Origin: Bacillota bacterium
GTDB lineage: Bacteria > Bacillota > Desulfotomaculia > Desulfotomaculales > Desulforudaceae
Direction: 5' to 3'
NCBI GenBank assembly: GCA_040757205.1
Contig: JBFLXL010000007.1
Coordinates: forward strand, 44,143 to 108,142
Length of the DNA stretch: 64,000 nt
Both the position numbers and the translations under genes were made by a program. Below the pieces are notes generated by a model. The model ran no database searches and was not told where the DNA came from. It worked only from the letters and a program-made list of their open reading frames with translations. Of this stretch, positions 42,213 to 57,933 are shown one piece after another (positions within the stretch are counted from its first letter, which is position 1; every line of letters begins with the position of its first letter).

Positions 42213-42305
42213 GCCCGGGCCGGGAGCACGCCGGCCGGAAAGCGGACGGTAAGGCCGATTAAGAGAGGCTTAACGGACAAACAAGCACGCCTTGATGCGG
42301 CGAAG

Positions 42306-42375
42306 CCGGGGTACCTGCGCGGGGCACCCGCGTGGGGCACCCACGCCGTGGGTCGGATCGGCGCGGAGCGTACCG
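42306..42375. repeat. GC-rich hairpin repeat, copy A (intergenic)
   Basis: The plus strand reads GGGGTACCTGCGCGGGGCACCCGCGTGGGGCACCCACGCCGTGGGTCGGATCGG. Confidence 0.85.
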
Positions 42376-42446
42376 GCTGGTTCGTGAGCACTGAAACAGG
42401 CTCAGCCTGACAAAGCCGGGCGTGACTTTTTTAAAGCATCTTCTTT

Positions 42447-42671
42447 TTAGGAACTGAGCAGTTCCTCGCACGCTTGAATGATTCCCTTCAGTTCCCGGGC
42501 CAGCCGCTTGTCGGGGCACTGTTTGAGCGTGAGATTGTAGGCCAGGCGCAACTGGAACATGAGCCTGACCCTTTGCATGGGGCTGATCTCCTGCTCTTCC
42601 AGGCGCAGTGTCTCCATGAGGTTCCTGGAGTTGTATATCAGTACTTTGAATTCCTCAGCGCTGCTAGGCAT
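42447..42671 (-). CDS. Hypothetical small helical protein
   Basis: 74 aa ORF, no recognised family. Confidence 0.35.
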   Translation of the reverse strand: MPSSAEEFKVLIYNSRNLMETLRLEEQEISPMQRVRLMFQLRLAYNLTLKQCPDKRLARELKGIIQACEELLSS

Positions 42672-42894
42672 TGTCTACCTCGGCCACTACCCTGAAAATC
42701 CCCTCTCCTTCTGGGAGAGGGTCAGGGTGAGGGTATTTTCATCCTTCTGCTGGTGCCGCTAGAGCGGCATGGGTGTCTGTTTTATTGTTGCCGGCCGGAC
42801 TCGTCCACGACGGGGTTTAACTTAACAGACAACCTTAGCGCCTCTGGAGTTCCACAAAAACGCTGCCACTTGTTGGCTGAAAGACCTTAGCCCG

Positions 42895-43341
42895 CTACAT
42901 CCGGGCCTTTCCGGCACGCAGCATTCTGGTCAGGGCGGCTTCCAGGCGCCGGTCGTCGGCGGGCGTGCGCCGGCGCGGCCCCCTGGTGCGCCCGCCCCCC
43001 CGCCGGAAGCGGGATTTCAGCGCCCGCTCCTCCAGCAGAAAGGCCATCGCCTCGGGGCGGTACACCCGCCCGTCCGGAGACACGGCCTCCGCCTTGCGGC
43101 CCAAAACCAACGCCGCGAGGCCCCAGTCCTGGGTCACCACCACGTCGCCCGCCCGCGTCGCGTTCACCACTGCAATGTCGGCCTCCTCAGGCGCGTCCCC
43201 CACCACGATGTGCCGGTCCGATTCGATCCGGTGGTTGAAACCGGCCACGGTCCAGACCGGCACGCCGAAAACACGGCCCAGCCGCCGGCACACCTCCAGC
43301 GCCCCGCGCGGACAGGCGTCCGCGTCAATAATCAGTTTCAT
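42895..43341 (-). CDS. YaiI/YqxD family protein (DUF188)
   Basis: MKLIIDADACP N-terminus and VTQDWGLA motif. Confidence 0.8.
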   Translation of the reverse strand: MKLIIDADACPRGALEVCRRLGRVFGVPVWTVAGFNHRIESDRHIVVGDAPEEADIAVVNATRAGDVVVTQDWGLAALVLGRKAEAVSPDGRVYRPEAMAFLLEERALKSRFRRGGGRTRGPRRRTPADDRRLEAALTRMLRAGKARM

Positions 43342-43480
43342 AGGCCTCAGGCTCCCCCCGGAATCCACTAAAATGAACACCCCGCTCCGTTCTTGATACG
43401 GCGCCGACGCCGCAATCTCCTCCCGGGAACAAGGGGTGTTCTTGTCGGGTTCTGGGGGTGTCCGCCCCCATGTTGTCAGA

Positions 43481-43509
43481 AAGACCGGCCTTTGGGGAGG
43501 CCGGTCTTT
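43481..43509. terminator. Hairpin terminator
   Basis: AAAGACCGGCCT-loop-AGGCCGGTCTTT; T-rich on the minus strand after the DUF1540 gene. Confidence 0.6.
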
Positions 43510-43514
43510 CCGCG

Positions 43515-43667
43515 TTACCTTTTCCGCTTGAAGGTTTCACATTTGGTCTCGTCCGAGGACTTCGCGTTGCTTGCGTGGTTCCGGTCCACCTGGATCATCG
43601 GGGCGTCGCACTTCACGTTCTGGTTGTATTCGCACTCGGTGACCGTGCATTTGATTTCGTTAGGCAC
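43515..43667 (-). CDS. DUF1540 domain protein (50 aa)
   Basis: Below the track cutoff. GTG after AAAGGGGGTG. VPNEIKCTVTECEYNQNVKCDAPMIQVD...TKCETF carries the DUF1540 cysteine pattern. Confidence 0.7.
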   Translation of the reverse strand: MPNEIKCTVTECEYNQNVKCDAPMIQVDRNHASNAKSSDETKCETFKRKR

Positions 43668-43733
43668 TGGAATGTCACCCCCTTTACTTGAACTCCGGTT
43701 TAGTGTTCTTCAGGGGTGGACCGATTATGCATA

Positions 43734-46700
43734 TTATTGGATAATCAGGGTGGAGCCGGTCATTAACAAAAAAAGGTGGCGTTCCTTGACCCGCTGCCCC
43801 AGAATCGCCTCCACGGCCCGGGCGTACAGCGCCATCTGCCCGCGGTAGCGTTCCACGAGCGCGGCCTCGCCGCCCGGCTCCACCCGGCCGGTCTTGTAGT
43901 CCACCAGCACCAGGCCGTCCGGTTCGGCGAACAGGCAGTCGATGATCCCCTGGACCATCACCCGCTCCTCCGGCCAGCCCTCCAGCTCCGGATAGACCTC
44001 TTCCGCCGGCACGGCCAGGCAGAACGGCCACTCCCGGCGCACCCACAGCGCCCCGGAGAACCGCCGCCCCAGCCCGCCCGCGAAAAGCCCGGCGAGCTTT
44101 CCGGCGTCGACCGCCCGGGCCTCGGCCTCCGTCAGCAGCTCCCGCGCCGCCAGCCGAACCACCTGCGCGCGGATGCCGTCCGCGCTCAAGTCCCCGCCCA
44201 GGTCCAGGTGCTGCAGCACCAGGTGCATCGCCCGCCCGAACGCCGCCGGCGAGAGCCCCCGCGCCGCCTCCAGAAATGCGGGGCGGGCGGGCGGCGCGCG
44301 GTGCGGGAAGGCGGCCGGCACGGCCTCCTCCCCGGCCTCGGCTGCCGCGAACCGGCGCTTGACCTCGGTGGCCGCCACCTTGGCGCTGCACAGCGCCAGG
44401 GCCGGCGCGGGGTAGCTCCAGGAAAGCGCCGCCCGCACCGCCTCGTCCAGGCCGCCGTCCACGGCGGGCACCGCCACCGGCTCGATCCGGCGCACGCTTT
44501 CCAGCACCGCCGCCCGACCCGACCCACTGACGTGGGTGCTCCGCGCGGGTACCCCGGCTGACCCGGCCCGGCCCGACCCGACTTGATCTGACCCGGCCCG
44601 GCCCGACCCGCTGGCGTGGGTGCCTGGCGTGGCTGCCCCGAGCGCGTACCCCCGGGTACCCCCGGGTTCCCCGGGGTCCGCCCCCGCCGCCGCCTCTTCC
44701 AGGCTCTCCGGCCCGTGCAGGTGCACCTCCCACCGGGACTGGTCCCCCGGCACCTCCACCGCCGGCCGGCACCCGGACGCCAGGCGGCGCAGCGGTTCAC
44801 CGTCCGGATGCACCGTCAGGACCGGCATCACCCAGTCCAGCCAACTGGCGGCCTCGGCCAGCACCGGCGCGGGCAGGGCCGCCCCGCCGCCCCCGGCCGC
44901 GTGGCTCCAGCGGCGCACCGCCTGCTCCAGCCGGGCCGCCGAGCCGGTCAGGATCAGCCGCTCCCGGGCCCTGGTCATCGCCACGTACAGGATGCGCATC
45001 TCCTCGGCCAGTTGTTCCCGGCGCAGACGCTCGCGCACCACGCGCCACGCCGCGGTCGGATGACTGACCCGGGCCGCCGGGTCAACGAAGTACGGCCCCG
45101 GCCCGAGGTCCTTGTGCAGCAGCATCTCCCCGTTCAAGTCGGGCATGTAGAACCGCCGGCCCAGCCCGGCCAGGATCACCACCGGAAACTCCAGTCCCTT
45201 AGCCTGGTGGATGCTCATAATCCGGACCACGTTCTCGCTCTCGGCCAGGGCCGGGGCCGGCCCCAGGTCCCGGTCCCCTTCCCGGAGCAGTTCGATGAAG
45301 CGCAGGAAGCGGAACAGCCCCCGGAAGGAGGTCGCTTCGTACTGGCGGGCCCGGTCGTACAGCGCCCGCAGGTTGGCCTGCCGCCCGGCCCCGCCCGGCA
45401 GCCCCCCGGCGTAGTCGTAGTAGCCCGTGGTGCGGTACACGTCCCAGATCAGGTCGGCCGGCGACCCGCGCCGCGCCTGGGAGCGCCATTTCTCCAGGCG
45501 TGCCAGAAAGGCGGTCAGGACCTCGCCCAGGGGGCCCGGCGCGACGGCCGCCGCCCTCACCGCCTGCAGGAAATCGCCCTGTTGGTCTGCGAGCCGGATG
45601 CGGGCCAACTCCGCCGCCCCGAGCCCCACCAGGGGCGAGCGCAGCACTGCGGCCAGCGGGATGTCCTGGTGCGGGTTGTCGATCACTTTCAAGAGGGAGA
45701 GCACGGTCTCCACTTCCACGGCCTCGAAGTAGCCCGTGCCGACCTTCGCGTAGGCCGGGATGTTCAAGCGCCGGAACTCCTCGAGATAGATGTCGGCTTT
45801 GCCGGTCACGGCGCGCATCAGCACCACGATCTCCCGGTAGGGCACCCCGTGCTCATCCCCGCCGCCACCCGCCGCTAGGCGCCGGATGATCCCGGCCGTC
45901 AGCCGCGCTTCGCGCTGCACGGTGCTCAGGTCCTCGTCGTCCGGGTGCTCCTCCGGGGCGCCGCCTTCGTAACCCCCGGCGCCGCCTTCGTAACCCCCGG
46001 CAACGTTCTCCGCCTCCGCCTCGTTCTCCGCCCCCGCCGCGCCGGCGGCCTCCCAACCCACTGAAGTGGGTACCCCGACTGACGCGGGTGCCCCGACCAG
46101 GTGCACCTCCACCGGCGGGCCGACCCACCCACGTGGGTGCCCCGACTCACCTGGGTGCCCCGACTCACCTGGGTGCCCCGACTCGATCTCGGCCGACCCA
46201 CTAACGTGGGTGTCCCGATTGACGAGGGTGTCCCGGTCGCCCGGGACCAGCTCGGCCGCCGCATCGTAGGCCAACTCCCCGACCGCCGGGGTCATGATCC
46301 GCCGGAACACCGCGTTCACGGCGTGCAGGATCGACGCGCGGCTCCGGAAGTTGGCGCTTAAGTCGATCCGCCGGTTGCCCGACCCGACCGACTGGCGTGG
46401 GTGCCCCGCGTGGGTGCCCCGGTCCGGCGCCGCGTCGAACGTCCGGTACTTCTCCAGAAAGAGCGCCGGTTCGGCCAGCCGAAACCGGTAGATGCTCTGC
46501 TTCACGTCCCCGACCATAAAGAGGTTCGGCGCCGCGTCGTCCTGCCGTGACACCAGGCGCAGAATCAGCTCCTGGACGGCGTTGATGTCCTGGTACTCGT
46601 CCACCAGCACCTCGGCGTAGTACTCCCGGAGCCCCGCCGCCACCGGCGACGGCATGGGTGCCTCCGGGGTCGAGCCCGGGTCGAGCAGGATCTGCTGAGC

Positions 46701-47813
46701 GTAATGCTCCAGGTCGGCGAAGTCCACGAGGTTTCGCGCCAGCTTGGCGGTGCGGTACGCCTCCCCGAAGTCGGCCGTGAGCTCGGCCAGCCGGCACATC
46801 GCCGGACCGAGCGCCGCCATCTCCTCCTGGAGTTCCCCGGGTTCGCGTTCGAAGAACGCCTCTTTGAGGCCGTCGACCCGCCCCTTGGCTTTCTTGCGGC
46901 CGCCGGTGCAAAGCCCCTTCAACACTTCGTCCACGGGGCCGCGGGCCGCGGGCAGCCTGGGCGTGAACGCAAACCCCAAAAAGGCGGCGCGCAAACTCTC
47001 CCAGTCCCCGCCCACCAGGGCCGTTAAGCCTTCCACCCCTTCGATCTCCGCAGCCAGGACGTCAGCGTAGGCCGCCGGTCCGCCCGGCGCCTCGGCCGCC
47101 TCCAGGGCGGTCTTTAATTCAAACGCCGCCGCCTCGAGGGCGGAGGCCACCAGCTCCCGCAGGCCCCGCGCCAGCGGCTCGTCCCCGTCCAGGCCGGCCG
47201 GCGCCGTCCCGAAGGCGGCTGCCCGCTCGAGCCAGGCCCGGGGCCAGGGGTTCGAACGCGCGAAGCGGTGCAGGCCCAGCACCAAATTTTGTAAATGCAG
47301 GTCGTCCCGCTCGCCCCCGTACGCCTCCACCAGAAACTCCAGGTCGGGGTCGTCGGCGATCCCCTGGTACTGCGCCTCGAAGAACTCATCCAAGGTTTCC
47401 TGCCGCATGATCGCGGCCTCGGTCTCGTCGGCCACCCGGAACTCCGGGTCGAGGTCGATCAGGTGGCAGTACCGGCGCAGCAGCTCGGCGCAGAACGAGT
47501 GGACGGTGGTGATGTCCGCTTGGGGCAAGAGCCGCAACTGGTGCTCCAGGAGCGCCGTCCCCGGGTTTCTCTCCAGTTCCCGCTCCAACGCCTCGGCCAC
47601 CCGCTTGCGCATCTGGGCGGCGGCGGCGTTCGTGAAGGTGACCACCAGCAGCCGGTCGACGTCCACCGGCGCGTCCGGATCCGAGATGCGCCGGATCACC
47701 CGCTCCACCAGCACCGCCGTCTTCCCCGAGCCGGCACCCGCCGCCACCAGGAGGTTGACCTGGCGGCAATCGATGGCCTCCCTTTGCGACTTCGTCCAGT
47801 TCCGCTCACTCAT
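43734..47813 (-). CDS. addA: ATP-dependent helicase/nuclease subunit A
   Basis: AGAGSGKT, UvrD helicase motifs and a C-terminal RecB-type nuclease (GIIDCLF...DYKT). ATG at 47813 overlaps the addB stop (ATGAGTGA). About 100 aa longer than typical because of repeat insertions. Confidence 0.9.
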   Translation of the reverse strand: MSERNWTKSQREAIDCRQVNLLVAAGAGSGKTAVLVERVIRRISDPDAPVDVDRLLVVTFTNAAAAQMRKRVAEALERELERNPGTALLEHQLRLLPQADITTVHSFCAELLRRYCHLIDLDPEFRVADETEAAIMRQETLDEFFEAQYQGIADDPDLEFLVEAYGGERDDLHLQNLVLGLHRFARSNPWPRAWLERAAAFGTAPAGLDGDEPLARGLRELVASALEAAAFELKTALEAAEAPGGPAAYADVLAAEIEGVEGLTALVGGDWESLRAAFLGFAFTPRLPAARGPVDEVLKGLCTGGRKKAKGRVDGLKEAFFEREPGELQEEMAALGPAMCRLAELTADFGEAYRTAKLARNLVDFADLEHYAQQILLDPGSTPEAPMPSPVAAGLREYYAEVLVDEYQDINAVQELILRLVSRQDDAAPNLFMVGDVKQSIYRFRLAEPALFLEKYRTFDAAPDRGTHAGHPRQSVGSGNRRIDLSANFRSRASILHAVNAVFRRIMTPAVGELAYDAAAELVPGDRDTLVNRDTHVSGSAEIESGHPGESGHPGESGHPRGWVGPPVEVHLVGAPASVGVPTSVGWEAAGAAGAENEAEAENVAGGYEGGAGGYEGGAPEEHPDDEDLSTVQREARLTAGIIRRLAAGGGGDEHGVPYREIVVLMRAVTGKADIYLEEFRRLNIPAYAKVGTGYFEAVEVETVLSLLKVIDNPHQDIPLAAVLRSPLVGLGAAELARIRLADQQGDFLQAVRAAAVAPGPLGEVLTAFLARLEKWRSQARRGSPADLIWDVYRTTGYYDYAGGLPGGAGRQANLRALYDRARQYEATSFRGLFRFLRFIELLREGDRDLGPAPALAESENVVRIMSIHQAKGLEFPVVILAGLGRRFYMPDLNGEMLLHKDLGPGPYFVDPAARVSHPTAAWRVVRERLRREQLAEEMRILYVAMTRARERLILTGSAARLEQAVRRWSHAAGGGGAALPAPVLAEAASWLDWVMPVLTVHPDGEPLRRLASGCRPAVEVPGDQSRWEVHLHGPESLEEAAAGADPGEPGGTRGYALGAATPGTHASGSGRAGSDQVGSGRAGSAGVPARSTHVSGSGRAAVLESVRRIEPVAVPAVDGGLDEAVRAALSWSYPAPALALCSAKVAATEVKRRFAAAEAGEEAVPAAFPHRAPPARPAFLEAARGLSPAAFGRAMHLVLQHLDLGGDLSADGIRAQVVRLAARELLTEAEARAVDAGKLAGLFAGGLGRRFSGALWVRREWPFCLAVPAEEVYPELEGWPEERVMVQGIIDCLFAEPDGLVLVDYKTGRVEPGGEAALVERYRGQMALYARAVEAILGQRVKERHLFLLMTGSTLIIQ
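44513..44679. repeat. GC-rich hairpin repeat cluster, copy B (in addA)
   Basis: CCCGACCCGACCCACTGACGTGGGTGCTCCGCGCGGGTACCCC ... GACCCGCTGGCGTGGGTGCC ... GGGTACCCCCGGGTACCCCCGGG. Encodes GGTRGYALGAATPGTHASGSGRAGSDQVGSGRAGSAGVPARSTHVSGSG. Confidence 0.85.
45958..46236. repeat. GC-rich repeat cluster, copy C (in addA)
   Basis: A 21-nt unit x2 (GGYEGGA x2), CCCACTGAAGTGGGTACCCC, and GGGTGCCCCGACTCACCT x3 (ESGHPG x3), then CCCACTAACGTGGGTGTCCC. Confidence 0.85.
46378..46422. repeat. GC-rich hairpin repeat, copy D (in addA)
   Basis: CCCGACCCGACCGACTGGCGTGGGTGCCCCGCGTGGGTGCCCCGG. Encodes DRGTHAGHPRQSVGSG. Confidence 0.85.
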
Positions 47814-50800
47814 CCGCCGCTTCCCCCTCCCCGGCCGGTCCCAGCAGGCGCCACATCTCGGCGGGCGGCAAGCGGCGCAGCAGCCGGTAGCGGTTCGACG
47901 CCAGCAAGGGGTCGAACGCGCAGAGCGGCTTGAAGGCGCAGTACCGGCAGGCACCAACCCCGCCCTTGCGGTACGGGGCGATGCCCACCGCGCCGCCCTG
48001 GATCTGGGCCGCCGTTTCCACGATCATCCGGCGTACGTGCTCCAAGAGCCGTTCGAACTGCGCCGCGCTCACCACCGCCGCCTTCTTCTTCGCCGTGCCG
48101 TCTTTGTTCAACCCGGCGGGCACGATCAGCGACTCGCCCGCGACGGCGCCATCCATCAGGCGCAGGAGCGCCGGGTCGCCCAGCACCAGCCCCTGCATCC
48201 GGAAGGCCTTCAGGAGCTGCGCCGCGGCGTCCGCCGCCGACAGCGGCTTCCCGCCCCTCAGGAGCGGGTTTTGCACCCGGAAGTAGAACGCCCCCGCCGG
48301 CAGGCACTCCCGGCCGACCAGCACCGGCGCCCCCCCGAGACAGGCGTCCAGGTACACCAGGAGCTGCAGGTTCAAGCCGTGGTACACGTCGTCGAGCGCC
48401 AGGCTCCGGGGCCCGGCCTTGTAGTCGATCACCCGCAGGTAGGCGGCCTCTTGCGTGTGCGCCACGTCCACCCGGTCGACCCGCCCGGCCAACTCTACCC
48501 GGCCGCCGTCGGGGAGCGGGTAGGACGGCCCCGGCACCGCCTGGCCCGGCCCGAACGGCACTTCCACCGCCACCGGCCGGAAGGCGCTCCGGCGGGCGTG
48601 GGCGGCCATCACCCCGGCCGTGCGCTGCACCACGCGCTTGAGCTTGCCGGTCAAAAACCGGTGCCGGGACGTGCTTAGAAGGATCTCGCTCTGCAGACGG
48701 GGCGCCAGCTCCTCCACCACTTCGGACGCCAGCCGCTCACACTCCGCGCTCTCCAGCGCGTGCCACTCCACGCCGCTTTCCCGCAGCCGGCCGTCGAACG
48801 TGCGCAAGGCCTCGTGGAAGAACTGCCCGATGTCCGGCGCCTCCAGCCGGCAGACCTCTCGTTCCTTGAGGCGGAGCGCGTAGCGGGCAAAGTGGGCGAA
48901 CGGGCAGCCCCGGAATTTCTCCAGCCGGGACACGCTCACCACCAGTTGATCCGACCCGACCCGACCCGATTCGACCCCACCCGACCAGACCTGACCCAGC
49001 CCGACCCCGCCCGAACCGATGCCGCCCGACCCAACCTGATCCGAACCGACCTGACCCAACTCGACTCCACCCGAACCGATGCCGCCCGACTCGACCTGAC
49101 CCGACCCGACCTGACCGGACCCACTGGCGTGGGTGTCCTGCGTGGGTGCCCCGCTTGGGCGCTCCGCACGAGGACCCTGAGCAGGTGCCCCGCCGTAGAG
49201 CGCCTGGGCCAAGTCGGGGTCCAGCGGCGGTTCCCGGTTCTCGAAGAAAAGGCCGGCGAGCGCGGGCGCACACCGCTCCCGGCGGCCGTCGCCGTTGTCT
49301 GCGAACCAATTGAACACCGACCACCACACCGGGTCCACCGGCACGCCCGCTTTCCAGTCCCGGAGGCGGGTGACCAGAAAGCCCAGGGTGCGGCCGGGCG
49401 CCGTGACGTAGGGAAGGTCTGCCCCGGGTGCGCTCCCATCGGGTTCCAGGGCCAGCGTTTCTTCCCCGAGCCCGGGGAAAAGCTCCCGGAGCCGGGGAAT
49501 GACACTGGACGGGGCCATGGCCCTCCCCTCCTCGTCGGCCAGGGGGTAGCTCACCCAGAGGTACTCGCTCGCGCGGGTCAAAGCGATGTACACCAGGTAT
49601 TGCTCCTCGTAGACCTTGCGGCGGGCGTCGGGCGCCACCTCGAGGCCGGCGGCGAGCAGCGCCTCCCGCTCCCGGTCGGTGAAAAGGCCGGTATCGCGGT
49701 GGCGGCCGGGCAGGACGCCCTCGGACACCCCGAGCACGAACGCCGCCCGGACGTCCGGGTTGCGGGAGCGCTCCAGCGAGCCCACCAGCACCTGGTCGAG
49801 CGCCGGCGGGATCAGGGCGAGTTGCAGCCCGTCCATCCCGGAGTCGAGCACCCGCCCGAACTCCTCGGCGGTCAGCGCCTCGTCGCCGAGCGCCTCCACC
49901 ACCTGGTCGAAAAGCGCCACCACCCCGGCCCAGAGCTGCCGGTGCTCGCGGGCGGCCTCCAGCCGCCCCTCGGCCTCGGCTTCGCGGCTCCACGCCTCGA
50001 TGCGCCGCGGGACGCTCAGGGCGGTCAGGAGGTCGTACAGGGCGGCGGTGAAGTCGCGGGCGGTGGCGGCGAAAAGCACGCGGCGCTGGAAATCTAACAG
50101 GTGGCGCGCGGCCTGGCGCCGGACCCGGTTCACCTTCCGCCGCAAGTACCGGTTCGGGGCACCCACGCCAGTGGGTCGGGTCGGGATGTCCCCGCCGAGG
50201 GCGTGCGGGCGTTCGTAGTGCCAGTCGGCTTCGTCCGCCCACTTCGCCCCCCCCCGGATGCCGTGGGCCAGGACGTAGTTCTCCAGAAGGTCGACGTCGG
50301 CGCGGGAGACCGGCACCAGGTCGGTCTTCAGGTACCGGAACACCGGGTCGTAGGCCCAGTTCCCGGTCACCGTCTCCAGGGCCGAGCGGATGAGCTCCAC
50401 CAGCGGGTGGTGGCGCACCGGGCGCTTTCGGTCGATGAAGCACGGGATGCCGTAGTCGGCGAACACCGTGGCCACGAGTTCGTGGTAATCGGCCAGGTTG
50501 CGGACGACCAGGGAGAAGTCCCGCCAGTGCCAGCCCCGCTCCCGGCACAGGCGCAGGATCTCCCGGGCCGCTCCTTCGACCTCGGCCCGGCGGCTCGCGG
50601 CCGCGACCAGGCGCAGATTCGAAAGGGGGACAGGCACAGTCCCCTCGAACGGCGCACCGGCAAACTTCTGGGTGGGGCGGCGAAAGAACTCCCGCTCCAG
50701 GTGGACGAGGGCGGGGTTCGCCCGGAAGCGAGCCGGGGGGGAGGCTGCCAGTTCCACCGGCTGGGCGAGCTTCACCCCGTTTTTGCGGGCCAGCTCGGCG

Positions 50801-51645
50801 AGGCGCGCCCGGGTGCCCCGGGTCACCTGAAAGAGGTCCCGGTCCTCGCGCCGCCGGGAGCGGGGGTCCAGGCAGAGCGCCACGTTCACCCGGGCGGCCG
50901 TTTTGAGGAGTGCCGCCAGTACCGCGTATTCCTGCGGCGTAAACCCGGCGAACCCGTCCACCCACACCTCGGCGCCGCGCAGCGTCGGGCTCTCCCCGAG
51001 CCGGGCGGCGAGCAGGGTCAGGTAGTCGTCCGGGTCGACATACTTGCCGGCGAGTTCGCGCTCGAAATCGGCGTAGAGGAGGCGCAAGTCCTCGAGCTTC
51101 GCCTGCAGGGAGTAGGTCTCGACGGTGCCGGGCAGCATGCAGCCGGTCCGCTCCAGGGCCTCGGGGGTGACCAGGCAGGTCTTGAGTTCGGAGAGCGCGC
51201 CCGCCAGGGTGCCGGAGAAGCCGTACCGCCCGGCGGCCCGGCCGAAGAGGCGCAGCTCGCCGCGGCGGCGCGCCAGGATGCGGGCGAGCAGCATGCGCTT
51301 GCCCACGTCACCGATGTGCGGGCGGGCCGCCCCGCCCACCTCGGCGAACACCCGCCAGGCCAGGCGCCGGAAACTCAAGACCTGGGCCCGGAACATCCCG
51401 GACAGGCCCGGGGTGAGGGTGAGCGCGTACTCGGTCTGGAAGGTGGCCTGCTCGGGCACCAGAAGCACAAGCGGCGGCCCGTCGGGGGACCCACTGACCC
51501 GACCCGGCCCACTGATGTGGGTGTCCCGCGTGGGTGCCCCGCGCGGGTACCCCTGGGTGCCCCGCCGCAGTTCCTCGCGGATCTCGTCCAGGCAAAGGCG
51601 GGTCTTGCCGCTACCGGCCCGCCCCAGAATAAACCGCAACGTCAA
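47806..51645 (-). CDS. addB: ATP-dependent helicase/nuclease subunit B
   Basis: GRAGSGKT N-terminus, C-terminal nuclease with Fe-S cysteines (CPFAHF ... CRYCAFKPLC). About 100 aa longer than typical because of repeat insertions. Confidence 0.9.
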   Translation of the reverse strand: MTLRFILGRAGSGKTRLCLDEIREELRRGTQGYPRGAPTRDTHISGPGRVSGSPDGPPLVLLVPEQATFQTEYALTLTPGLSGMFRAQVLSFRRLAWRVFAEVGGAARPHIGDVGKRMLLARILARRRGELRLFGRAAGRYGFSGTLAGALSELKTCLVTPEALERTGCMLPGTVETYSLQAKLEDLRLLYADFERELAGKYVDPDDYLTLLAARLGESPTLRGAEVWVDGFAGFTPQEYAVLAALLKTAARVNVALCLDPRSRRREDRDLFQVTRGTRARLAELARKNGVKLAQPVELAASPPARFRANPALVHLEREFFRRPTQKFAGAPFEGTVPVPLSNLRLVAAASRRAEVEGAAREILRLCRERGWHWRDFSLVVRNLADYHELVATVFADYGIPCFIDRKRPVRHHPLVELIRSALETVTGNWAYDPVFRYLKTDLVPVSRADVDLLENYVLAHGIRGGAKWADEADWHYERPHALGGDIPTRPTGVGAPNRYLRRKVNRVRRQAARHLLDFQRRVLFAATARDFTAALYDLLTALSVPRRIEAWSREAEAEGRLEAAREHRQLWAGVVALFDQVVEALGDEALTAEEFGRVLDSGMDGLQLALIPPALDQVLVGSLERSRNPDVRAAFVLGVSEGVLPGRHRDTGLFTDREREALLAAGLEVAPDARRKVYEEQYLVYIALTRASEYLWVSYPLADEEGRAMAPSSVIPRLRELFPGLGEETLALEPDGSAPGADLPYVTAPGRTLGFLVTRLRDWKAGVPVDPVWWSVFNWFADNGDGRRERCAPALAGLFFENREPPLDPDLAQALYGGAPAQGPRAERPSGAPTQDTHASGSGQVGSGQVESGGIGSGGVELGQVGSDQVGSGGIGSGGVGLGQVWSGGVESGRVGSDQLVVSVSRLEKFRGCPFAHFARYALRLKEREVCRLEAPDIGQFFHEALRTFDGRLRESGVEWHALESAECERLASEVVEELAPRLQSEILLSTSRHRFLTGKLKRVVQRTAGVMAAHARRSAFRPVAVEVPFGPGQAVPGPSYPLPDGGRVELAGRVDRVDVAHTQEAAYLRVIDYKAGPRSLALDDVYHGLNLQLLVYLDACLGGAPVLVGRECLPAGAFYFRVQNPLLRGGKPLSAADAAAQLLKAFRMQGLVLGDPALLRLMDGAVAGESLIVPAGLNKDGTAKKKAAVVSAAQFERLLEHVRRMIVETAAQIQGGAVGIAPYRKGGVGACRYCAFKPLCAFDPLLASNRYRLLRRLPPAEMWRLLGPAGEGEAADE
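48951..49153. repeat. GC-rich repeat cluster, copy E (in addB), with expanded CGACC array
   Basis: A long (C)CGACC(C/T)GA array with an internal 60-nt periodicity, ending CCCACTGGCGTGGGTGTCCTGCGTGGGTGCCCCGC. Encodes PTQDTHASGSGQVGSGQVESGGIGSGGVELGQVGSDQVGSGGIGSGGVGLGQVWSGGVESGRVGSDQ. Confidence 0.9.
50146..50193. repeat. GC-rich hairpin repeat, copy F (in addB, opposite orientation)
   Basis: The plus strand reads TACCGGTTCGGGGCACCCACGCCAGTGGGTCGGGTCGGGATGTCCCC. Read by the gene as DIPTRPTGVGAPNRY. Confidence 0.9.
51484..51566. repeat. GC-rich hairpin repeat, copy G (in addB, just after Walker A)
   Basis: GGGGGACCCACTGACCCGACCCGGCCCACTGATGTGGGTGTCCCGCGTGGGTGCCCCGCGCGGGTACCCCTGGGTGCCCCGCC. 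Encodes GTQGYPRGAPTRDTHISGPGRVSGSPD. Confidence 0.9.
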
Positions 51646-51709
51646 GACCCCTCACCCCCTCTCCCGGTATCCGCTCTTCTCGCAACCTTCGTACGTTGTC
51701 CCCCTTGCG

Positions 51710-54061
51710 CTACTCCGGCGGCCGCGCCCGCCAACTGCTCGCCCGGATCGAGCTGCCCCGGTCGTGCACCGTGCTCGTTCCCGCCTCCATCCGCAGCACG
51801 AACACGGCGTCCGCGGTGCCCGAGAGCGGCTGATTGTGGGTGGTGACGATCAGTTGGCGGCCGAACGAGTCCGAAAAGCCTTTGAGCAGACGGGCCACCC
51901 GGGATAAAAACCGGTGACTGACCTGCTGCGCCGGCTCGTCCAGGACCAGCGGCCCGGGCACCATTGGACGGGCCACCTCCAAAAAGGCCACCCGCAAAGC
52001 GAGCGACACCACGTCTGCCACCCCGCCACCGTGCACATTAAGGTCCGCCGACCCACTTCGGTGGGTGCCCCAACCGTCCCCCGGGGTACCCGGGGGTGCC
52101 CCCTGAAGCGGGTCAGTCGGGGTACCCGGAGGTGCCCACGTGGGGCCCCCACGCCAGTCGGGGTAGCCGCGCGGGGCACCCACGCCAGTGGGTCGGGTCG
52201 AGTCCGGGGCACCCTCGCGGGACACCCTCGCCGGTGAGTCGGGTCGGGTCGGGTCTTTGGCCCAGCCGGAACTCACCAGAAAGTCGGCCGCCGCCGGCTC
52301 CCGCTCGTCCCGCAGCGTAATTTTGAACGCCATCGGGACGTCGAACACAAAACTCAGCGCCCGGGCGACCACTTCCTCGGCCCGCGCCAGGGCCTCGTCG
52401 CGGGCGCGCCCGGCCGCCAGGTTCAGCAACGCCGCTACTGCTTCCTGATCCACACCCCCGCCGCCGGTCGCAACGTTTCTCCTGGCCGCCTCGAAAAGCG
52501 CCGCCCCGGACATCCGTTCCAGCGCCCGAGCCCGCAGCCCGCCCGGCAGACCCAGCAGGAAGGGTCCCTCGCGTTCCTGGGCCACGTTCAGGCAAATGGT
52601 GTATTCCTGGTCCAGCGTCAGCAGCGCGCCGCACCAGGGCGGATCATCGCCGTCGGCAAACGGCCCGCCCAGCGGCGCCGCGTCGTCGCCACCCGACCCG
52701 CTAACGCAGGTACCCCGGTCTTGTGGGTTTGGGTGGTACGGTTGTCCCATTGAGTCGCCGCCCGACCCGACCCGACCCACTGGCGTGGGTACTCCGCGTG
52801 GGTGCCCCGCGCGGGTACCCCGGTCCGGGCATGTCCCCAGCCGGTGTTCCCGGACCAGTCGCCGCCCGTCGCTGCAGACTGCGGTCACCCGGCAAAACCG
52901 AGCACCGGCCCGCACGTACCCGTCCTGGGCCGGCTCCCGGCACAGCAGCCAGCGCAGCGCCCGGACGATGGCGCTCTTGCCTTGGCCGGTCTCGCCCAGG
53001 ACCACGTTCAGCCCCGGGGCGAGTTCAAGCTCGGTGTACACGTGCGACTGAAAATTCTCCAGCACCAGGTGCGTGAGGTGCGCCCCCCGCTCCCGCCGCT
53101 CCGCCCCGGCCTGCGCCAAGCACCGGGCGGCCTCCGCCGCCGCCCCGGGCGCGAATTCGCCGGCGCGCGCCACGTCCCGGAGCACTTCGGCCGGCTCAAG
53201 GTAAGTGCAGCTTTCCGGGCGCTCAAGCCGCCCGAAGGCGGCCTCCGCCCCTTCACGCCCCGCCGCCGCCGCGGCCAGCCCGGCGTCCAGCACTTCGTGG
53301 CCGGGCCGGGCCGTCTGCAGCGGGATCTTGGTGTGCACCGGGCGGGGACCGGAAAAGTCCAAAAGCAGCACCTGCGGCGTGCGCCGGACGTCGCCCGGCT
53401 GGACGGAGAGCCTGACCAGCGAACCCGGGTTGATGAACCAGCGGCCTTCCCATTCCACGTCCGGATAGCCGAAGTGGGCGTGGCTTCCCAGCGTGTAGTC
53501 GGCCTCGGTGTGGGGGGCGATCGTGCGCACCAGGGTGTGCGGCGTCCCCGGGAAGAAGGGTTTGTCCAGAAGCATCCCGTGGACCAGGTGGACGGCGTAG
53601 TCACAGTCTGATTTGGTCACGCAGTAGTCGCCCTGCTGGTCCACCCGGTCCATGTTGAAGTGAAAAGGGGTGCCCGTCAGTTGAACGCGCACCCCCCGCG
53701 ACTCCAGGTGGACCCTCTCCCCCCGGCGCAGCACGTGCAGCGTCCCTACCGAGTCCAAGAGCCCGAGCATGGTGTGCTCGAGGGTGTCCGGGTTGCAGGC
53801 GAAGATGTCGTGGTTCCCCTGGACCACGTAGATGGGTACGCCCATCCCGATGAAGATCCGGATGAAGTCGCCGACCACCGCGAGTTCCGGCGACGGCTGG
53901 TCGAAGAAGTCCCCGCCGTGCAACAGCGCGTCGACCTCCAGGGCGCGCACGAGCCCAGCGACCTCCAGGAGTTTTGCGCGGACCGTGGCCGGAAAGTCGT
54001 CGCGGCGGTGAGGCGGGTTGTCACCGCGGATGTGGGTGTCCGTAAGGTATAGCAAGCGCAT
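51710..54061 (-). CDS. Fused SbcD/Mre11-like metallophosphoesterase and SbcC/Rad50-like ABC ATPase without long coiled coil
   Basis: N-terminal DTH...GGDFFD...GNHD...GSHAH. Then ENFQSH...LGETGQGKSA (Walker A), HGGGV (signature-like), LVLDEP (Walker B) and TTHN. Immediately upstream of addB. Confidence 0.7.
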   Translation of the reverse strand: MRLLYLTDTHIRGDNPPHRRDDFPATVRAKLLEVAGLVRALEVDALLHGGDFFDQPSPELAVVGDFIRIFIGMGVPIYVVQGNHDIFACNPDTLEHTMLGLLDSVGTLHVLRRGERVHLESRGVRVQLTGTPFHFNMDRVDQQGDYCVTKSDCDYAVHLVHGMLLDKPFFPGTPHTLVRTIAPHTEADYTLGSHAHFGYPDVEWEGRWFINPGSLVRLSVQPGDVRRTPQVLLLDFSGPRPVHTKIPLQTARPGHEVLDAGLAAAAAGREGAEAAFGRLERPESCTYLEPAEVLRDVARAGEFAPGAAAEAARCLAQAGAERRERGAHLTHLVLENFQSHVYTELELAPGLNVVLGETGQGKSAIVRALRWLLCREPAQDGYVRAGARFCRVTAVCSDGRRLVREHRLGTCPDRGTRAGHPRGVPTPVGRVGSGGDSMGQPYHPNPQDRGTCVSGSGGDDAAPLGGPFADGDDPPWCGALLTLDQEYTICLNVAQEREGPFLLGLPGGLRARALERMSGAALFEAARRNVATGGGGVDQEAVAALLNLAAGRARDEALARAEEVVARALSFVFDVPMAFKITLRDEREPAAADFLVSSGWAKDPTRPDSPARVSREGAPDSTRPTGVGAPRGYPDWRGGPTWAPPGTPTDPLQGAPPGTPGDGWGTHRSGSADLNVHGGGVADVVSLALRVAFLEVARPMVPGPLVLDEPAQQVSHRFLSRVARLLKGFSDSFGRQLIVTTHNQPLSGTADAVFVLRMEAGTSTVHDRGSSIRASSWRARPPE
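52048..52255. repeat. GC-rich repeat cluster, copy H (in the sbcDC-like gene)
   Basis: A compound of both orientations: CCGACCCACTTCGGTGGGTGCCCC ... GGGGTACCCGGGGGTGCCCC ... GGGGCACCCACGCCAGTGGGTCGGGTCG ... GGGTCGGGTCGGGTC. Encodes DPTRPDSPARVSREGAPDSTRPTGVGAPRGYPDWRGGPTWAPPGTPTDPLQGAPPGTPGDGWGTHRSGS. Confidence 0.9.
52691..52838. repeat. GC-rich repeat cluster, copy I (in the sbcDC-like gene)
   Basis: CCCGACCCGCTAACGCAGGTACCCCGG ... CCCGACCCGACCCGACCCACTGGCGTGGGTACTCCGCGTGGGTGCCCCGCGCGGGTACCCCGG. Encodes DRGTRAGHPRGVPTPVGRVGSGG...DRGTCVSGSGG. Confidence 0.9.
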
Positions 54062-54164: not shown

Positions 54165-55223
54165 TCACAGGTGGCTGACGACCAGGTCGCCGACCGCGTC
54201 GGTGCCGTAGCCCATTCGGCCGGCCGCCAGGCTCTTCAGGTGCTCGGCGCACACCTTCTGCACCGCCCGCTCGACGCGTGCGGCCGCCCTGGCCTCACCG
54301 AGTTGCTCCAGCATCATCGCCCCCGCGCACACCGCGGCGAGCGGGTTGATCACGTTCTGCCCGCTGTACTTGGGCGCCGACCCACCGATCGGCTCGAACA
54401 TCGACACTCCCTCGGGGTTTAAGTTCCCCCCGGCGGCGATCCCCATGCCGCCCTGGATCATCGCCCCCAGGTCGGTGATGATGTCCCCGAACATGTTGTC
54501 GGTGACGATCACGTCGAACCATTCCGGGTTTTTCACCATCCACATGCAGATCGCGTCCACGTGGGCGTAGTCGCGCTCGATGTCCGGGTACTCCGCGCCC
54601 ACCTCGTGGAACACCCGCTCCCACAGGTCGAACGCAAACGTCAGCACGTTGGTCTTGCCGCATAAGGTCACCTTGCGCCGCCCGCCCCGCTTGCGGCAAT
54701 ACTCGAACGCGAACCGGACACAGCGCTCCACCCCTTTCCGGGTGTTGATCGAGGTCTGGACGGCCACCTCGTCCGGGGTGCCCCGCTTCAAAAAGCCGCC
54801 GCTCCCGGCGTATAAGCCCTCGGTGTTCTCCCGCACCACCACGAAGTCGATGTCCGCCGGCCCTTTCCCGGCGATGGGCGTCTCCACCCCGGGGTAGAGC
54901 TTCACCGGCCGCAGGTTGACGTACTGGTCAAGTTCAAACCGCAGGCGGAGCAGAATGCCCTTCTCCAGAATGCCGGGCCGCACCTCGGGGTGCCCGATCG
55001 CCCCCAGGTAGACGGCGTCGTAGCGTTTGAGCTGCTCGACCGCGTCCGCGGGCAGCACCTCGCCGGTGCGCAGGTAGTACTCGCCCCCCCAGTCCAGCAC
55101 CTTGGTGTCGAGCGCGAAGCCCTCCTGGCCGGCCACCGCCCCCAACACCTTCAACCCCTCGCGCACCTGCTCGGGGCCGGTGCCGTCCCCGGGAATCACC
55201 GCGATCTTGTACGTCTTTTGCAT
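54165..55223 (-). CDS. Tartrate/D-malate dehydrogenase-like member of the isocitrate/isopropylmalate dehydrogenase family
   Basis: [46 protein letters not shown]. The track ORF start at 55385 is an extension through intergenic repeats. Confidence 0.8.
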
Positions 55224-55265
55224 CTTTTTTGTTCGCCCCTCCTCGAGTTGCCCTCGCTCGTATTC

Positions 55266-55437
55266 CTGGCATCCTTCGCTATTCTTCATCTCCCACCATG
55301 GGGTGCGCCCTCGAACGCCAGGCTCCCTCAGGCAGGTTGGCACCCTATTGCTATTCTTCATCGGCTGACCACGCGGTCGATCCACACCTCGTTGTTCAGC
55401 AGGTTGGCACCCTACTGCTATTCTTCATCCCCGACCA
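55266..55437. repeat. Degenerate tandem repeat (~67-72 nt x 3) that includes the pdp 3' end
   Basis: GCTATTCTTCATC occurs at 55278, 55350 and 55417. Copies 2 and 3 share ~42 nt (TCAG(G)CAGGTTGGCACCCTAYTGCTATTCTTCATC...GACCA). Confidence 0.8.
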
Positions 55438-56734
55438 CGGCGTGCACCAGCGGCCCCGGGGCGGTCCGCTCCGCCGCCAGGACGTAGGCCTCCCGGACCA
55501 GGGCGGCCGCCTCAGCCTCGGCCCCGCCCCGCCCCGCGCCGTGCAGGGTAGCCAGCGCCTCGCCCGCCTCCACCCGCGACCCCACCTTGCGGTGCAAGAC
55601 TACCCCGACCGCCGGGTCCACGCGCTCGTCCTTTTTCGTGCGCCCGGCTCCCAAGGCGAGCGCCGCCCGCCCCACCGCCCGGGCGTCGATTCCCGCCACC
55701 CAGCCGCCGCGCTCGGCCCGCACCTCCTGCCGCTTATGCGCCGCCGGCAAAAGATCCGGGTCGTCCACCACCGCCGGGTCGCCCCCTTGCGCGCGCACCC
55801 AGGCCCGCATCTTCTCCTGCGCCGCCCCGGACGCCAGCGCCGCCCGCACCAGCGCCCCTGCTTCTCCCAGGCTCCCCGCCCGGCCGCCCAGGAATACCAT
55901 GTGCCGCGCCAGCTCCAGGCAAAGCTCCACCAAATCAGCGGGCGAGGGCCGAGAGCCCGCCAGCACCGCCAGCGCCTCGCGCACCTCCAGGGCGTTCCCC
56001 ACCGCCCACCCCAGCGGCTCGTCCATCGCCGTCACCAGGGCCACCGTGCGCCGGCCGTGCCGCCGGCCGATCCGGACCATGGCCCGCGCCAGCTCGAGCG
56101 CCTCCTCCGTCCGCTGCATAAACGCCCCGGCGCCGGCCTTCACGTCCAGCACCACCGCGTCCGCGCCCGCCGCGATCTTCTTGGACATCACGCTGCCGGC
56201 GATGAGCGGGATGCTGTCCACCGTGCCCGTCACGTCCCGCAGGGCGTACAACATCCGGTCGGCCGGCGCCCACTCCCCGGTCTGCGCGCCCACCGCGAGC
56301 CCGATCTCCCGCACCTGCTCCGCCACCTCGGCCAGACCGAGATCCGTCCGAAAACCCGGGATCGACTCCAGCTTGTCGACCGTGCCCCCGGTGTGCCCGA
56401 GGCCCCGCCCCGACATCTTGGCCACCGGCACGCCGCAGGCCGCCACCAGGGGCGCCAGGACCAGGGTGGTCTTGTCCCCCACCCCGCCGGTGCTGTGTTT
56501 GTCCACCTTGATGCCGGGAATCGCCGTCAGGTCGACCGTTTCCCCGGACGCCACGATGGCACCTGTCAGGGCGGCCATCTCCCGGAAGCTCATTCCCTTG
56601 AAGTACACCGCCATCAAAAAGGCCGCCATCTGGTAGTCGGGGACGGTGCCGTCCACGAACCCGCCGATCAAAAACCCGGTCTCGTCTTCCGAAAGCTCGC
56701 CCCCCGCACGCTTTTTCAGAATCAGGTCCACCAT
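55418..56734 (-). CDS. pdp: Pyrimidine-nucleoside phosphorylase
   Basis: MVDLILKKRAGGELS..., VDKHSTGGVGD and SGRGLGHTGGT motifs. The ATG at 56734 lies 2 nt downstream of the deoB stop. Confidence 0.9.
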   Translation of the reverse strand: MVDLILKKRAGGELSEDETGFLIGGFVDGTVPDYQMAAFLMAVYFKGMSFREMAALTGAIVASGETVDLTAIPGIKVDKHSTGGVGDKTTLVLAPLVAACGVPVAKMSGRGLGHTGGTVDKLESIPGFRTDLGLAEVAEQVREIGLAVGAQTGEWAPADRMLYALRDVTGTVDSIPLIAGSVMSKKIAAGADAVVLDVKAGAGAFMQRTEEALELARAMVRIGRRHGRRTVALVTAMDEPLGWAVGNALEVREALAVLAGSRPSPADLVELCLELARHMVFLGGRAGSLGEAGALVRAALASGAAQEKMRAWVRAQGGDPAVVDDPDLLPAAHKRQEVRAERGGWVAGIDARAVGRAALALGAGRTKKDERVDPAVGVVLHRKVGSRVEAGEALATLHGAGRGGAEAEAAALVREAYVLAAERTAPGPLVHAVVGDEE

Positions 56735-56736
56735 CC

Positions 56737-57933
56737 TCAACGCTCCCCGCCTCCTTCCAAAACGAGCCGCCCGTAGAAACTTTCCCCCACCGGCCACCCG
56801 AAACCGAACACTTGCGCCACCGTCGCCGCCACGTCGGCCAGCGAGGCCCGCGTTCCCAGGTCCACCCCGCCCGCCAGGCCGGAGGCCGAGAGCACCAGAA
56901 GCGGCACGTACTCGCGCGTGTGGTCGGTGCCGGGCGTGGTCGGGTCGCACCCGTGGTCGGCGGTCAGCACCAAAAGGTCCCCCGGCGCAAGCGCCCCCAC
57001 CAAATCCGGCACCCGCCGGTCAAACGCCGCCAGCGCCGCCGCGTAACCGTGCGCGTCGTTCCGGTGGCCGTAGAGCATGTCAAACTCGATCAGGTTCGTG
57101 AACACCAGCCCCGACGAAAACTCCCGCAGCACCACGAGCGTCCGGTCCACCCCCTGCTCGTTGTCCCTGGTCGGAAAACTCGCGGTCAGCCCCCGCTCGG
57201 CGAAGATGTTCCCGATCTTCCCCACGCCCACCACCGCGTGGCCCCGCGCCTTTAAGGCGTCCAGGACGGTTTCCCCGCCCGGCGCCAGCGAAAAGTCTTT
57301 GCGGCGCGCCGTGCGCACGAAATGGCCCTCCGCCCCCGCGAACGGCCGGGCGATCACCCGCCCGACCGCGTGCTTGCCGGTCAGAAGCGCGCGCGCCACC
57401 CGGCAGATGCGGTAAAGCTCCTCCGGCGGGATGACCTCCTCGTGGGCGGCCACCTGGAACACGCTGTCCGCCGAGGTGTACACGATCGGCGCGCCGGTGC
57501 GCACGTGCTCGGCGCCCAGCTCCGCAATGATCGCTGTGCCCGAGGCCGGCCGGTTCCCCAGGGTCGGCCGCCCGATCGCCGCCTCGAAGGCCGCGATCAC
57601 GTCCGCCGGAAAGCCCTCCGGGTACACCGGGAACGGCCGGTCCAGCACCAGCCCGGCGAGCTCCCAGTGCCCGGTGGTGGTGTCCTTTCCGGCCGAGAGC
57701 GTGGCCATTTTGCCGTAGGCCGCCCGCGGGCGCGGGGCCGGCGGCACGCCCGCCACCGGGACGATGTTCCCCAGGCCCAGCGCCTCCAGGTGCGGCAGCG
57801 AAAGCCCGCCCACCGCCCGGGCGGTGTGCGCCAGGGTGTTCGTGCCCGCGTCGCCGTACGCGGCGGCGTCCGGCAGCGCCCCCACCCCGACGCTGTCCAG
57901 TACGATCAAGATGACCCGCTTCACAGGGACCAA
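56737..57933 (-). CDS. deoB: Phosphopentomutase
   Basis: [25 protein letters not shown] and TADHGCDP motifs. TTG at 57933 (MVPVKRV...) fits homolog N-termini better than the track start at 57996. Confidence 0.88.

Follow-up and report, generated by a model that had tools for sequence, protein, structure and literature searches.

A probable family of modular palindromic repeats lies in frame in addA, addB and an sbcDC-like gene of an uncultured Desulfotomaculia-like Firmicute

A 64,000-nt stretch of contig JBFLXL010000007.1 from an uncultured Desulfotomaculia-like Firmicute ("the window", meaning the whole stretch at its full length) carries nine sites of GC-rich hairpin repeats, eight of them in frame within three double-strand break (DSB) repair genes: addA, addB and a fused sbcD-sbcC-like gene. 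With a probability of roughly 70%, we read these sites as copies of one lineage-specific, modular family of palindromic repeats, non-coding and non-autonomous, that resembles the repetitive extragenic palindromes (REPs) and the Rickettsia palindromic elements (RPEs); their concentration in the three genes would be part of a general habit of the family combined with a real, unexplained bias. The family itself is new but belongs to a known kind: in-frame palindromic repeats and their host bias have both been described previously. The repeats account for 9-11% of the length of the three DSB-repair proteins.

A sequence-only reading of the window had proposed nine copies or clusters, and motif counts, a repeat search and an nhmmer profile place all nine at, or within a few bases of, the positions it gave. 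The motif GGGYRCCC occurs 33 times in the window against 17.9 expected, and CCCAC-N4-GTGGG occurs ten times against 0.23 expected, every one within 44523-52789. The repeat search grouped the copies into a direct family of seven (D2; 58 nt, 62-100% identity), the further direct families D4 and D9 and the inverted families I1-I20, with complementarity reaching 97% over 31 nt. Run on the window, the profile, which was made from an alignment of 14 copies, found 16 modules, all at 42303-52824. Its best score in the remaining 53 kb was only E=4.6, in keeping with the proposal that the rest of the window is free of copies. The chance of nine sites sharing one 10.5-kb span of the 64 kb is approximately 5e-6.

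A full unit is about 45-70 nt long, exceeds 75% G+C and is modular. On one strand it runs from a (CCCGA)n tail through a hairpin to two or three self-complementary GGGYRCCC units with a 13-nt period. The hairpin is ACCCAC-N4-GTGGGT, a 6-bp stem with a 4-nt loop, and the plus-strand consensus in the commoner orientation is (CCCGA)n - ACCCAC-TGGC-GTGGGT - GCCCCGC-GTGGGTGCCCCGC-GCGGGTACCCC. Alignment A6 shows the core flanked by conserved CCG (5') and RCCCCG (3'), with GTGG inside the stem and no CGTC. Neighbouring GGGYRCCC units are able to pair as an 8-bp stem with a 5-nt loop. Tandem Repeats Finder (TRF) reports periods of 5, 13, 18, 46 and 60 nt in the window copies, and the longest perfect pentamer tract has 3.6 units. 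Across 26 distinct hairpin copies, 96% of the stem cells are paired, compared with 29-47% when the partner is slid; at one stem pair there are four compensatory AU-to-GC cells, and the copies concerned are probably a subfamily. Folded as single-stranded DNA, some copies beat their shuffles (z=-3.3 and -2.2) and others fold no better, because shuffles of such GC-rich sequence fold well too. Neither the window nor eight repeat-bearing loci elsewhere matched an Rfam family. Intein, intron, CRISPR, attC and diversity-generating retroelement readings were dropped, as the units are too small, match no such Pfam or Rfam family and show no spacer structure.

Two assemblies serve as references for the individual sites. 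L001 belongs to the same species as the window (99% amino acid identity), and L002, a contig of the relative P0004, has full synteny over sbcDC-addB-addA-DUF1540-DUF188 at 82-84% amino acid identity and a synonymous divergence (dS) of about 0.45. The Pfam domains bear out the gene identities that had been assigned from sequence. The features are as follows.

42303-42375, minus strand: copy A (nhmmer E=3.4e-12; TRF period 13), the sole intergenic site, 3' of a DUF4367 anti-sigma-like gene; three GGGGCACCC units (13-nt period) and a degenerate hairpin; present in L001, with no profile match at the equivalent place in L002.
43734-47813, minus strand: addA (Pfam UvrD-helicase, UvrD_C, PDDEXK_1); about 1359 aa in the window versus 1234 aa in L002 (alignment A2).
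44513-44679, plus strand: copy B in AddA (nhmmer 44513-44561 and 44591-44657; TRF periods 5, 13 and 10); two hairpin units linked by a (GACCC)n tract, peptide GGTRGYALGAATPGTHASGSGRAGSDQVGSGRAGSAGVPARSTHVSGSGR; a 153-nt insertion relative to the empty site of L002.
46046-46239, plus strand: copy C in AddA (repeat groups D4 and D5; nhmmer; TRF); three hairpin units plus tandem 18-nt repeats (GGGTGCCCCGACTCACCT); L002 already has one of the hairpins, and L001 is shorter by one 18-nt unit.
46377-46428, plus strand: copy D in AddA (alignment to relatives; nhmmer); a 36-nt insertion, peptide THAGHPRQSVGS; 18 nt shorter in L001.
47806-51645, minus strand: addB (Pfam ADDB_N, PDDEXK_1); 1279 aa in the window; most homologues have about 1155 aa, L002 has 1165 aa and the close relatives have 1205, 1233, 1230 and 1165 aa.
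48953-49192, plus strand: copy E in AddB (alignments to relatives and to 3U44_B; TRF); a 240-nt insertion; it has a hairpin unit, 13-nt units and roughly 34 CCGAC pentamers, degenerate and with a higher-order period of 60 nt; encodes 81 aa that separate the helicase-like domain from the nuclease domain; L001 is 75 nt shorter here, and P0002 and P0003 differ in length and structure.
50144-50194, minus strand: copy F in AddB (nhmmer; nucleotide alignment; frame analysis); a single hairpin unit in reversed orientation that reads PTRPTGVGAP; the L002 site contains a diverged hairpin, CCCGTGCC-TAAC-GGCACGGG.
50623-50649, no strand: palindrome of a second family in AddB (alignments; DNA fold z=-2.9).
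51489-51560, plus strand: copy G in AddB (L002 empty site; 3U44_B alignment; DNA fold z=-3.3); a 72-nt insertion (24 aa) in the loop joining the post-Walker A helix alpha-1 to the next beta-strand (LVLLVPEQ).
51710-54061, minus strand: fused sbcD-sbcC-like gene (Pfam Metallophos, SMC_N, AAA_23, AAA_21); SbcDC is 783 aa in the window versus 695 aa in L002 (alignment A3).
52043-52264, both orientations: copy H cluster in SbcDC (repeat groups D9 and I1-I10; nhmmer; TRF); a 46-nt dimer at 52157-52254 (minus by profile) and an opposite-orientation unit at 52043-52131; L002 has one diverged unit only, with the compensated stem ACCCGC..GCGGGT, and L001 is longer by 15 nt.
52684-52838, plus strand: copy I cluster in SbcDC (nhmmer E=3.3e-15); the full unit at 52762-52824, the top-scoring copy, and a degenerate unit at 52684-52722; absent in L002.

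The limits first drawn around two copies had to be adjusted. Copy C does contain hairpin units, but the part at 45952-46026 is a different thing, an exact 21-nt tandem duplication (GGCGCCGCCTTCGTAACCCCC, peptide GGYEGGA twice) that is unrelated to the hairpin family and single-copy in L001; the same segment also has a GAG/GCG-rich stretch (EAEAEN). Copy E is a real site that runs to 49192 when measured against the empty site. The unrelated in-frame palindrome at 50623-50649 had been overlooked, which left the original inventory incomplete.

The relatives show that the insertions are recent. In the nucleotide alignment of the operon against L002, sites B, D, E, G and I are cleanly empty and sites C, F and H are partially occupied. 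In alignment A1, copies G and E vary in length among the four sequences that have them (the window, P0001, P0002 and P0003) and are missing from P0004 (83% identity) and from all more distant AddB homologues. The copies were inserted after the split from the relative at dS of about 0.45. The extra length of further long AddB homologues (P0020, P0064, P0101 and others) comes from N-terminal or loop extensions that are unrelated to this element. Turnover is also visible within the species, with seven coding indels between the window and L001 (12, 15, 18, 18, 21, 30 and 75 nt), all multiples of 3 and nearly all of them whole repeat units. The frames are open in all four assemblies compared, and no frameshifted allele occurs among them; the L001 addB is called from an internal start and is not frameshifted at copy G. 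The family is still actively remodelling the loops of AddA, AddB and SbcDC. In practice, inserts of this kind lengthen proteins, interrupt assemblies and can lead gene callers astray, as the L001 addB illustrates.

The host genes are intact. Between the window and L002 the ratio of nonsynonymous to synonymous substitution rates (dN/dS) is 0.234 for AddA, 0.228 for AddB and 0.225 for SbcDC, and neighbouring genes give 0.07-0.34. GAPDH, RNR, a sigma factor and an isocitrate-type dehydrogenase, at 0.07-0.10, lie below the repeat-bearing genes, and the repeat-free neighbours nucleoside phosphorylase and phosphopentomutase, at 0.26-0.29, are similar to them. All Pfam domains are intact in the three proteins. 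Together these values indicate purifying selection and retained function.

The hairpin core is read in all six combinations of orientation and phase in the coding sequences of the window, L002 and UBA911 (GCA_002294005.1), a related metagenome-assembled genome (MAG) whose AddB is 92% identical. Class B1 has 10 copies (THxSGSG), B2 five (GHPRQWVGSG), B0 five (APTSVG), A0 two (RPTGVGAP), A2 two and A1 one, so that the G-rich orientation is favoured on the coding strand by 20:5. As had been proposed for the window, both orientations are used there, with copy F and part of copy H giving RPTGVGAP-type peptides and the others the THxSGSG, GHPRQWVGSG and APTSVG types. Since the same core is used in all six frames, it is a DNA element and not a protein motif. 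The sequence-only reading had further stressed that a 29-nt core lacks stop codons in every frame. This is true of that core, but it is a by-product of GC content: 57% of composition-matched shuffles of the 29-nt core and 41% of those of the 63-nt consensus share the property, and 10 of 15 actual copies have stops in frames that are not used.

Comparison with orthologues and with Bacillus subtilis AddB (PDB 3U44_B) upheld the placement suggested earlier for copies G and E. Copy G corresponds to a 24-aa gap between residues 28 and 29 of the B. subtilis protein, and copy E to 81 aa inserted between residues 786 and 788. AddB residues 1-560 were modelled with AlphaFold2 from a 42-sequence alignment; the model had a mean predicted local distance difference test (pLDDT) score of 82.7 and four segments with pLDDT below 50 (37-52, 333-342, 407-412 and 481-494). 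Inserts account for three of these: 37-52 is copy G, between helix 14-30 and strand 59-62, 333-342 is the second-family insert and 481-494 is copy F. The model thus supports placement of the inserts in predicted loops or linkers of low-pLDDT coil, and the UBA911 inserts in RecD2 and DprA similarly fall between Pfam domains. The initial description of the copies as pure insertions in linkers of intact genes is borne out by the empty sites of L002, the use of six frames, dN/dS near 0.23 and the low-pLDDT coil.

Beyond the window, a genome-collection scan with the pattern CCGACCCACNNNNGTGGGTRYYCCG, which gives six matches in the window and none in shuffles, returned 38 loci. UBA911 has eight matches at seven sites in four loci: two in addB and others in addA, in a RecD2 helicase (between the HHH and helicase domains), in DprA (between its two domains) and the dprA-topA spacer, and in the inter-half linker of CarB. 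With the profile, SbcDC, TopA, PyrF (one site) and PyrK (three sites) join the list for this genome; the 10-kb flanks of the add and pyr loci (RecQ, XerC-like, GAPDH, RNR, pyrB, pyrC, carA, folD and others) gave no copies. Two of the three PyrK inserts are missing in relatives at 83-87% identity, where the third site has a short or partial segment. Copies in UBA911 always stand in tight local clusters and most are intragenic. Four UBA911 contigs and a spacer have composite units that keep one module order and are about 81% identical, which suggests dispersal and not purely local growth.

These data qualify the proposal that the repeats cluster in recombination machinery. The clustering is real: the family piles up in few operons, DNA-processing genes are over-represented among its hosts, and DNA-recombination loci (addAB, recD2, dprA-topA) make up three of the four loci in the unbiased, genome-wide pattern scan of UBA911, for which a rough estimate is p of about 5e-4 if 5% of loci qualify. 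The hosts favoured are enzymes that handle single-stranded DNA, DNA ends and hairpins, and this bias is real but unexplained. It is not specific, as the family is not confined to recombination genes and also occupies carB, pyrK, pyrF and spacers. The suggestion that copies spread by gene conversion was not upheld. Similarity within a locus (81.1%) is no higher than between loci (81.2%; permutation p=0.52), and there is therefore no support for gene conversion or recent local copying behind the clustering.

Two pattern scans of viral contigs gave no match and no sign of a phage vector, and the 14 loci from a metagenome scan include none of the window's species. A six-frame synthetic peptide searched against a 5.8-billion-protein collection gave 1297 word candidates and none at E<=10, probably owing to the HMMER correction for biased composition.

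Under the repeat-family reading, new copies would arise in trans by a hairpin-dependent mechanism that leaves no target-site duplication, for which single-strand transposition of the REP/RAYT (REP-associated tyrosine transposase) or IS200/IS605 type may, by analogy, serve as a model. Arrays would then lengthen and shorten by replication slippage between 5-, 13- and 18-nt units, and only frame-keeping, stop-free insertions and slippage products would survive selection. On translation the inserts would give disordered loops rich in Gly, Ser, Thr, Pro, His and Arg, and the proteins would tolerate them. Several observations weigh against this account. No target-site duplications and no defined element termini are visible at at least eight filled/empty site pairs between the window and L002, where boundaries are ragged, and no target-site duplications occur at two very recent PyrK insertions in UBA911; transposition is therefore only inferred. 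A tblastn search of the window and 54 loci (about 0.4 Mb) with an IS200 TnpA query gave no match, RAYTs being divergent. Sixteen modules in 10.5 kb and none in 53 kb is not obviously what a freely transposing element would give, and intergenic DNA, expected to be the most tolerant, has one of the nine sites.

The concentration in repair genes could instead reflect function or selfish advantage. On this account the elements gather in genes for processing hairpins, single-stranded DNA and ends (SbcCD, AddAB, RecD2, DprA, TopA), where the altered enzymes favour the survival or spread of palindromes, or where hypervariable inserts tune recombination or mutation rates; the tuning variant is the mutator or contingency idea that Di Nocera et al. 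raise in their discussion of intragenic REPs (PMC3733652). The share of recombination loci in UBA911 and the eight of nine window sites in addA, addB and sbcDC fit such a reading, as does the like bias that this source reports for REP families of other phyla, unrelated to this one. Between strains the inserts are hypervariable, and because neither 5 nor 13 nt is a multiple of 3, a slip by one unit would shift the frame. Yet all seven strain-level indels are in frame with no frameshifted allele in four assemblies, perfect pentamer tracts stop at 3.6 units, carB, pyrK (three sites) and pyrF are colonised equally, dN/dS of 0.23 shows retained function and the inserts appear, from the model, to sit in disordered loops away from motifs. 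We saw no evidence of a dedicated recombination function of the inserts and consider this explanation unlikely. Also improbable is the absence of any mobile element, with slippage from GC-rich seeds in GC-rich genes producing the arrays and convergence or ectopic gene conversion producing the likeness among sites. This would account for the missing target-site duplications, termini and transposase in the DNA sampled, the tandem periods (5, 13, 18, 46 and 60 nt), the length polymorphism by whole units and the tight clustering. The host region is, moreover, GC-rich, at 70-72% G+C versus about 62% elsewhere; values at 44000-54000 and 55000-58000 are 70-78% versus about 60-65% in most of the window, and GC3, the G+C content at third codon positions, is 0.90-0.93 for genes in these stretches. 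But the equally GC-rich genes at 55-58 kb (phosphopentomutase and pyrimidine-nucleoside phosphorylase) have no repeats, and composite units of 40-58 nt with one module order, 80-97% identical, stand in both orientations in unlinked genes on different contigs and in spacers. Within-locus similarity shows no sign of local conversion, and the 25-nt core recurs in REP-like intergenic families of other phyla.

Two further explanations fared worse when checked. The similar peptides at several sites (THxSGSG, GHPRQWVGSG) might be ancient protein-level linkers or motifs selected for their amino acid sequence; this is refuted by the empty sites in relatives, segments being missing in orthologues at 83% identity and beyond, and by six-frame usage of one DNA sequence, and with an intergenic copy and conservation at the nucleotide level we regard it as most improbable. 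GC-rich repeats are hard to assemble, and the L001 contig ends within sbcDC, so an assembly artefact or decaying pseudogenes might be suspected. Four independent assemblies (the window, L001 from JGI, UBA911 from NCBI and P0002 from Logan) nevertheless share insert sites, the open reading frames are intact, the Pfam domains complete and dN/dS is about 0.23, which leaves a negligible chance of either.

Among known systems, the RPEs, reportedly described by Ogata et al. in 2000 as in-frame insertions in functional genes, offer the likeness first suggested for the window, and the comparison is apt, the window copies being recent, in-frame, DNA-level insertions into loops and linkers of intact hosts. 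Like RPE-1 to RPE-8, the window family consists of in-frame palindromes in many unrelated genes that are tolerated as surface loops, at positions the fold allows, and leave the host proteins functional. The RPE-1 unit spans 100-150 bp and has no internal tandem modules, and RPEs are dispersed genome-wide, unlike the window family, which has tandem modules and packs into few operons. Homology to the RPE family consensus is very unlikely, because Rickettsia is AT-rich and the window family exceeds 75% GC. REPINs, the hairpin repeats that Bertels and Rainey reportedly connected with RAYT transposases in 2011, also lack target-site duplications and sometimes form inverted pairs (compare the core pair of locus L042, below). 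They are extragenic. Most window copies are single units or arrays running head to tail, and no RAYT turned up in the roughly 0.4 Mb sampled with the IS200 TnpA query. Miniature inverted-repeat transposable elements differ in having terminal inverted repeats with target-site duplications; the filled/empty pairs and the two PyrK insertions show no duplications, and the boundaries of the copies are ragged.

The REPs catalogued in more than 80 species by Di Nocera, De Gregorio & Rocco 2013 (BMC Genomics 14:522, PMC3733652) provide the closest parallel. As that paper describes them, in-frame intragenic REPs, including Rickettsia RPE-4 and RPE-6, encode 20-82 aa; many intragenic hosts are recBCD, uvrABCD, polA and dnaE2, a bias the paper leaves unexplained while speculating on mutator phenotypes. 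A link of in-frame palindromic repeats with DNA-repair genes is thus, on this source, not new. The window hairpin falls within the REP description (a 20-40 bp palindromic unit, 5-13 bp stem, short loop). According to the same source, the GTAG and CGTC REPs share with the window family GC-rich in-frame palindromes occurring singly, as dimers or in clusters and several per gene, hosts often in replication and repair (including recBCD, the AddAB counterpart, and UvrD-type helicases), G-T pairs and compensatory stem variants, and, for the CGTC type, the lack of a known transposase. They differ in being mainly extragenic and downstream of genes, whereas the window family is mostly intragenic in the DNA sampled. 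The window family also lacks the unpaired terminal GTAG/GTGG or CGTC tag, the REP consensus being compared by description only, and joins a pentamer tail, a hairpin and an array of 8-nt palindromes with a 13-nt period into one composite unit. Its host is a Firmicute, and the word "Firmicutes" is absent from the main text of PMC3733652. Simple-sequence contingency loci and the G-rich, quadruplex-forming GGGNATC repeats, the latter reported to be under-represented in coding regions (Rehm et al. 2015, PMC4692102), resemble the window family in their short G-tract units, such as (GGGTC)n, whose number varies by strain. In the window family, by contrast, all observed variation is in frame and the units are embedded in a larger palindromic element; tracts of at most 3.6 units, seven of seven indels in multiples of 3 and open frames do not describe a phase-variable locus.

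With the window, in-frame palindromic repeats are now known from an uncultured Desulfotomaculia-like Firmicute as well, in a new architecture and at an unusually high load. The repair-gene bias of intragenic REPs is reproduced independently by an unrelated family, with AddAB in place of RecBCD, and coincidence becomes harder to argue. One operon with natural filled and empty alleles also provides a compact test case.

The second palindrome, at 50623-50649, has the form TTCGA-GGGGAC-N7-GTCCCC-TCGAA and is in frame in AddB (peptide FEGTVPVPL); it is missing in L002 and duplicated (+30 nt) in L001. The general form of this family is GGGGAC-N1-7-GTCCCC, often followed by a T-run, and it occurs at L001 1690-1940 and 2994-3012 and at L028 5252-5270 and 6305-6340. 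In L001 it also builds an insertion of about 250 nt in the spacer between sbcDC and addB, which is absent from the window. A short repeat, GAGCCAGTCCCCGGCCGAGCCC, occurs twice in the UBA911 carB-pyrK spacer (L032 2585-2690), and the similar GGAGCCAGTCCCC is found in the L001 spacer insertion. In a relative (L055 8155-13476), a cluster of Cas6, a WYL-domain regulator and Cas3 comes after the pyr operon and contains no copies of the repeat family.

A 25-nt hairpin core, CCGACCCAC-N4-GTGGGTRCCCCG, recurs within otherwise different repeat families of other phyla. In a Candidatus Sulfotelmatobacter MAG (Acidobacteria) it is part of an intergenic element of about 150 nt at 17 loci, and in a deltaproteobacterial MAG it is joined to GGGACAGTCCCC at nine loci; the look-alikes in these two phyla are intergenic, between convergent genes. 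It also occurs in several metagenome families, one of which, at L042 (2200-2320), forms an inverted REPIN-like pair, and in AT-rich contexts, namely Desantisbacteria and an Ig-like domain repeat where it is read as TRPTEVGAP. Example positions, among loci L003-L054, are L006 5960-6110, L009 1900-2100, L048 880-990, L025 44-82, and L030 490-522 and 1249-1281. Among the eight repeat-bearing loci, Rfam has no family matching these cross-phylum repeats. A GGGGAC-N-GTCCCC palindrome sometimes stands alongside the core, which has now been listed from Firmicutes, Acidobacteria, Deltaproteobacteria, Desantisbacteria and metagenome families. It is a long shot, but CCG-ACCCAC-N4-GTGGGT-RCCCCG might define an unrecognised cross-phylum REP-like superfamily, mainly intragenic here, that prefers genes acting on its own intermediates, the inserts then being a selfish attenuation or re-tuning of anti-palindrome surveillance. 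SbcCD cleaves hairpins, AddAB and RecD2 degrade ends and single-stranded DNA, DprA coats single-stranded DNA and TopA controls the supercoiling that drives cruciform extrusion. If true, this would explain the long-noted repair-gene bias of intragenic REPs.

Elsewhere in the window, about 15 tandem 21-nt units at 5208-5521 encode the heptad QELRT(D/G)(L/Q) in a small open reading frame adjoining a tRNA gene (4945-5017); its product is probably a coiled-coil protein unrelated to the repeat family. A near-perfect inverted repeat at 11200-11298 has 47-nt arms, 72% complementary, a 5-nt spacer and a centre containing GAATTC. Direct-repeat pairs of 42-45 nt with 73-nt spacing are found at 35176-35290 and 59893-60010, with 83% and 93% identity, respectively.

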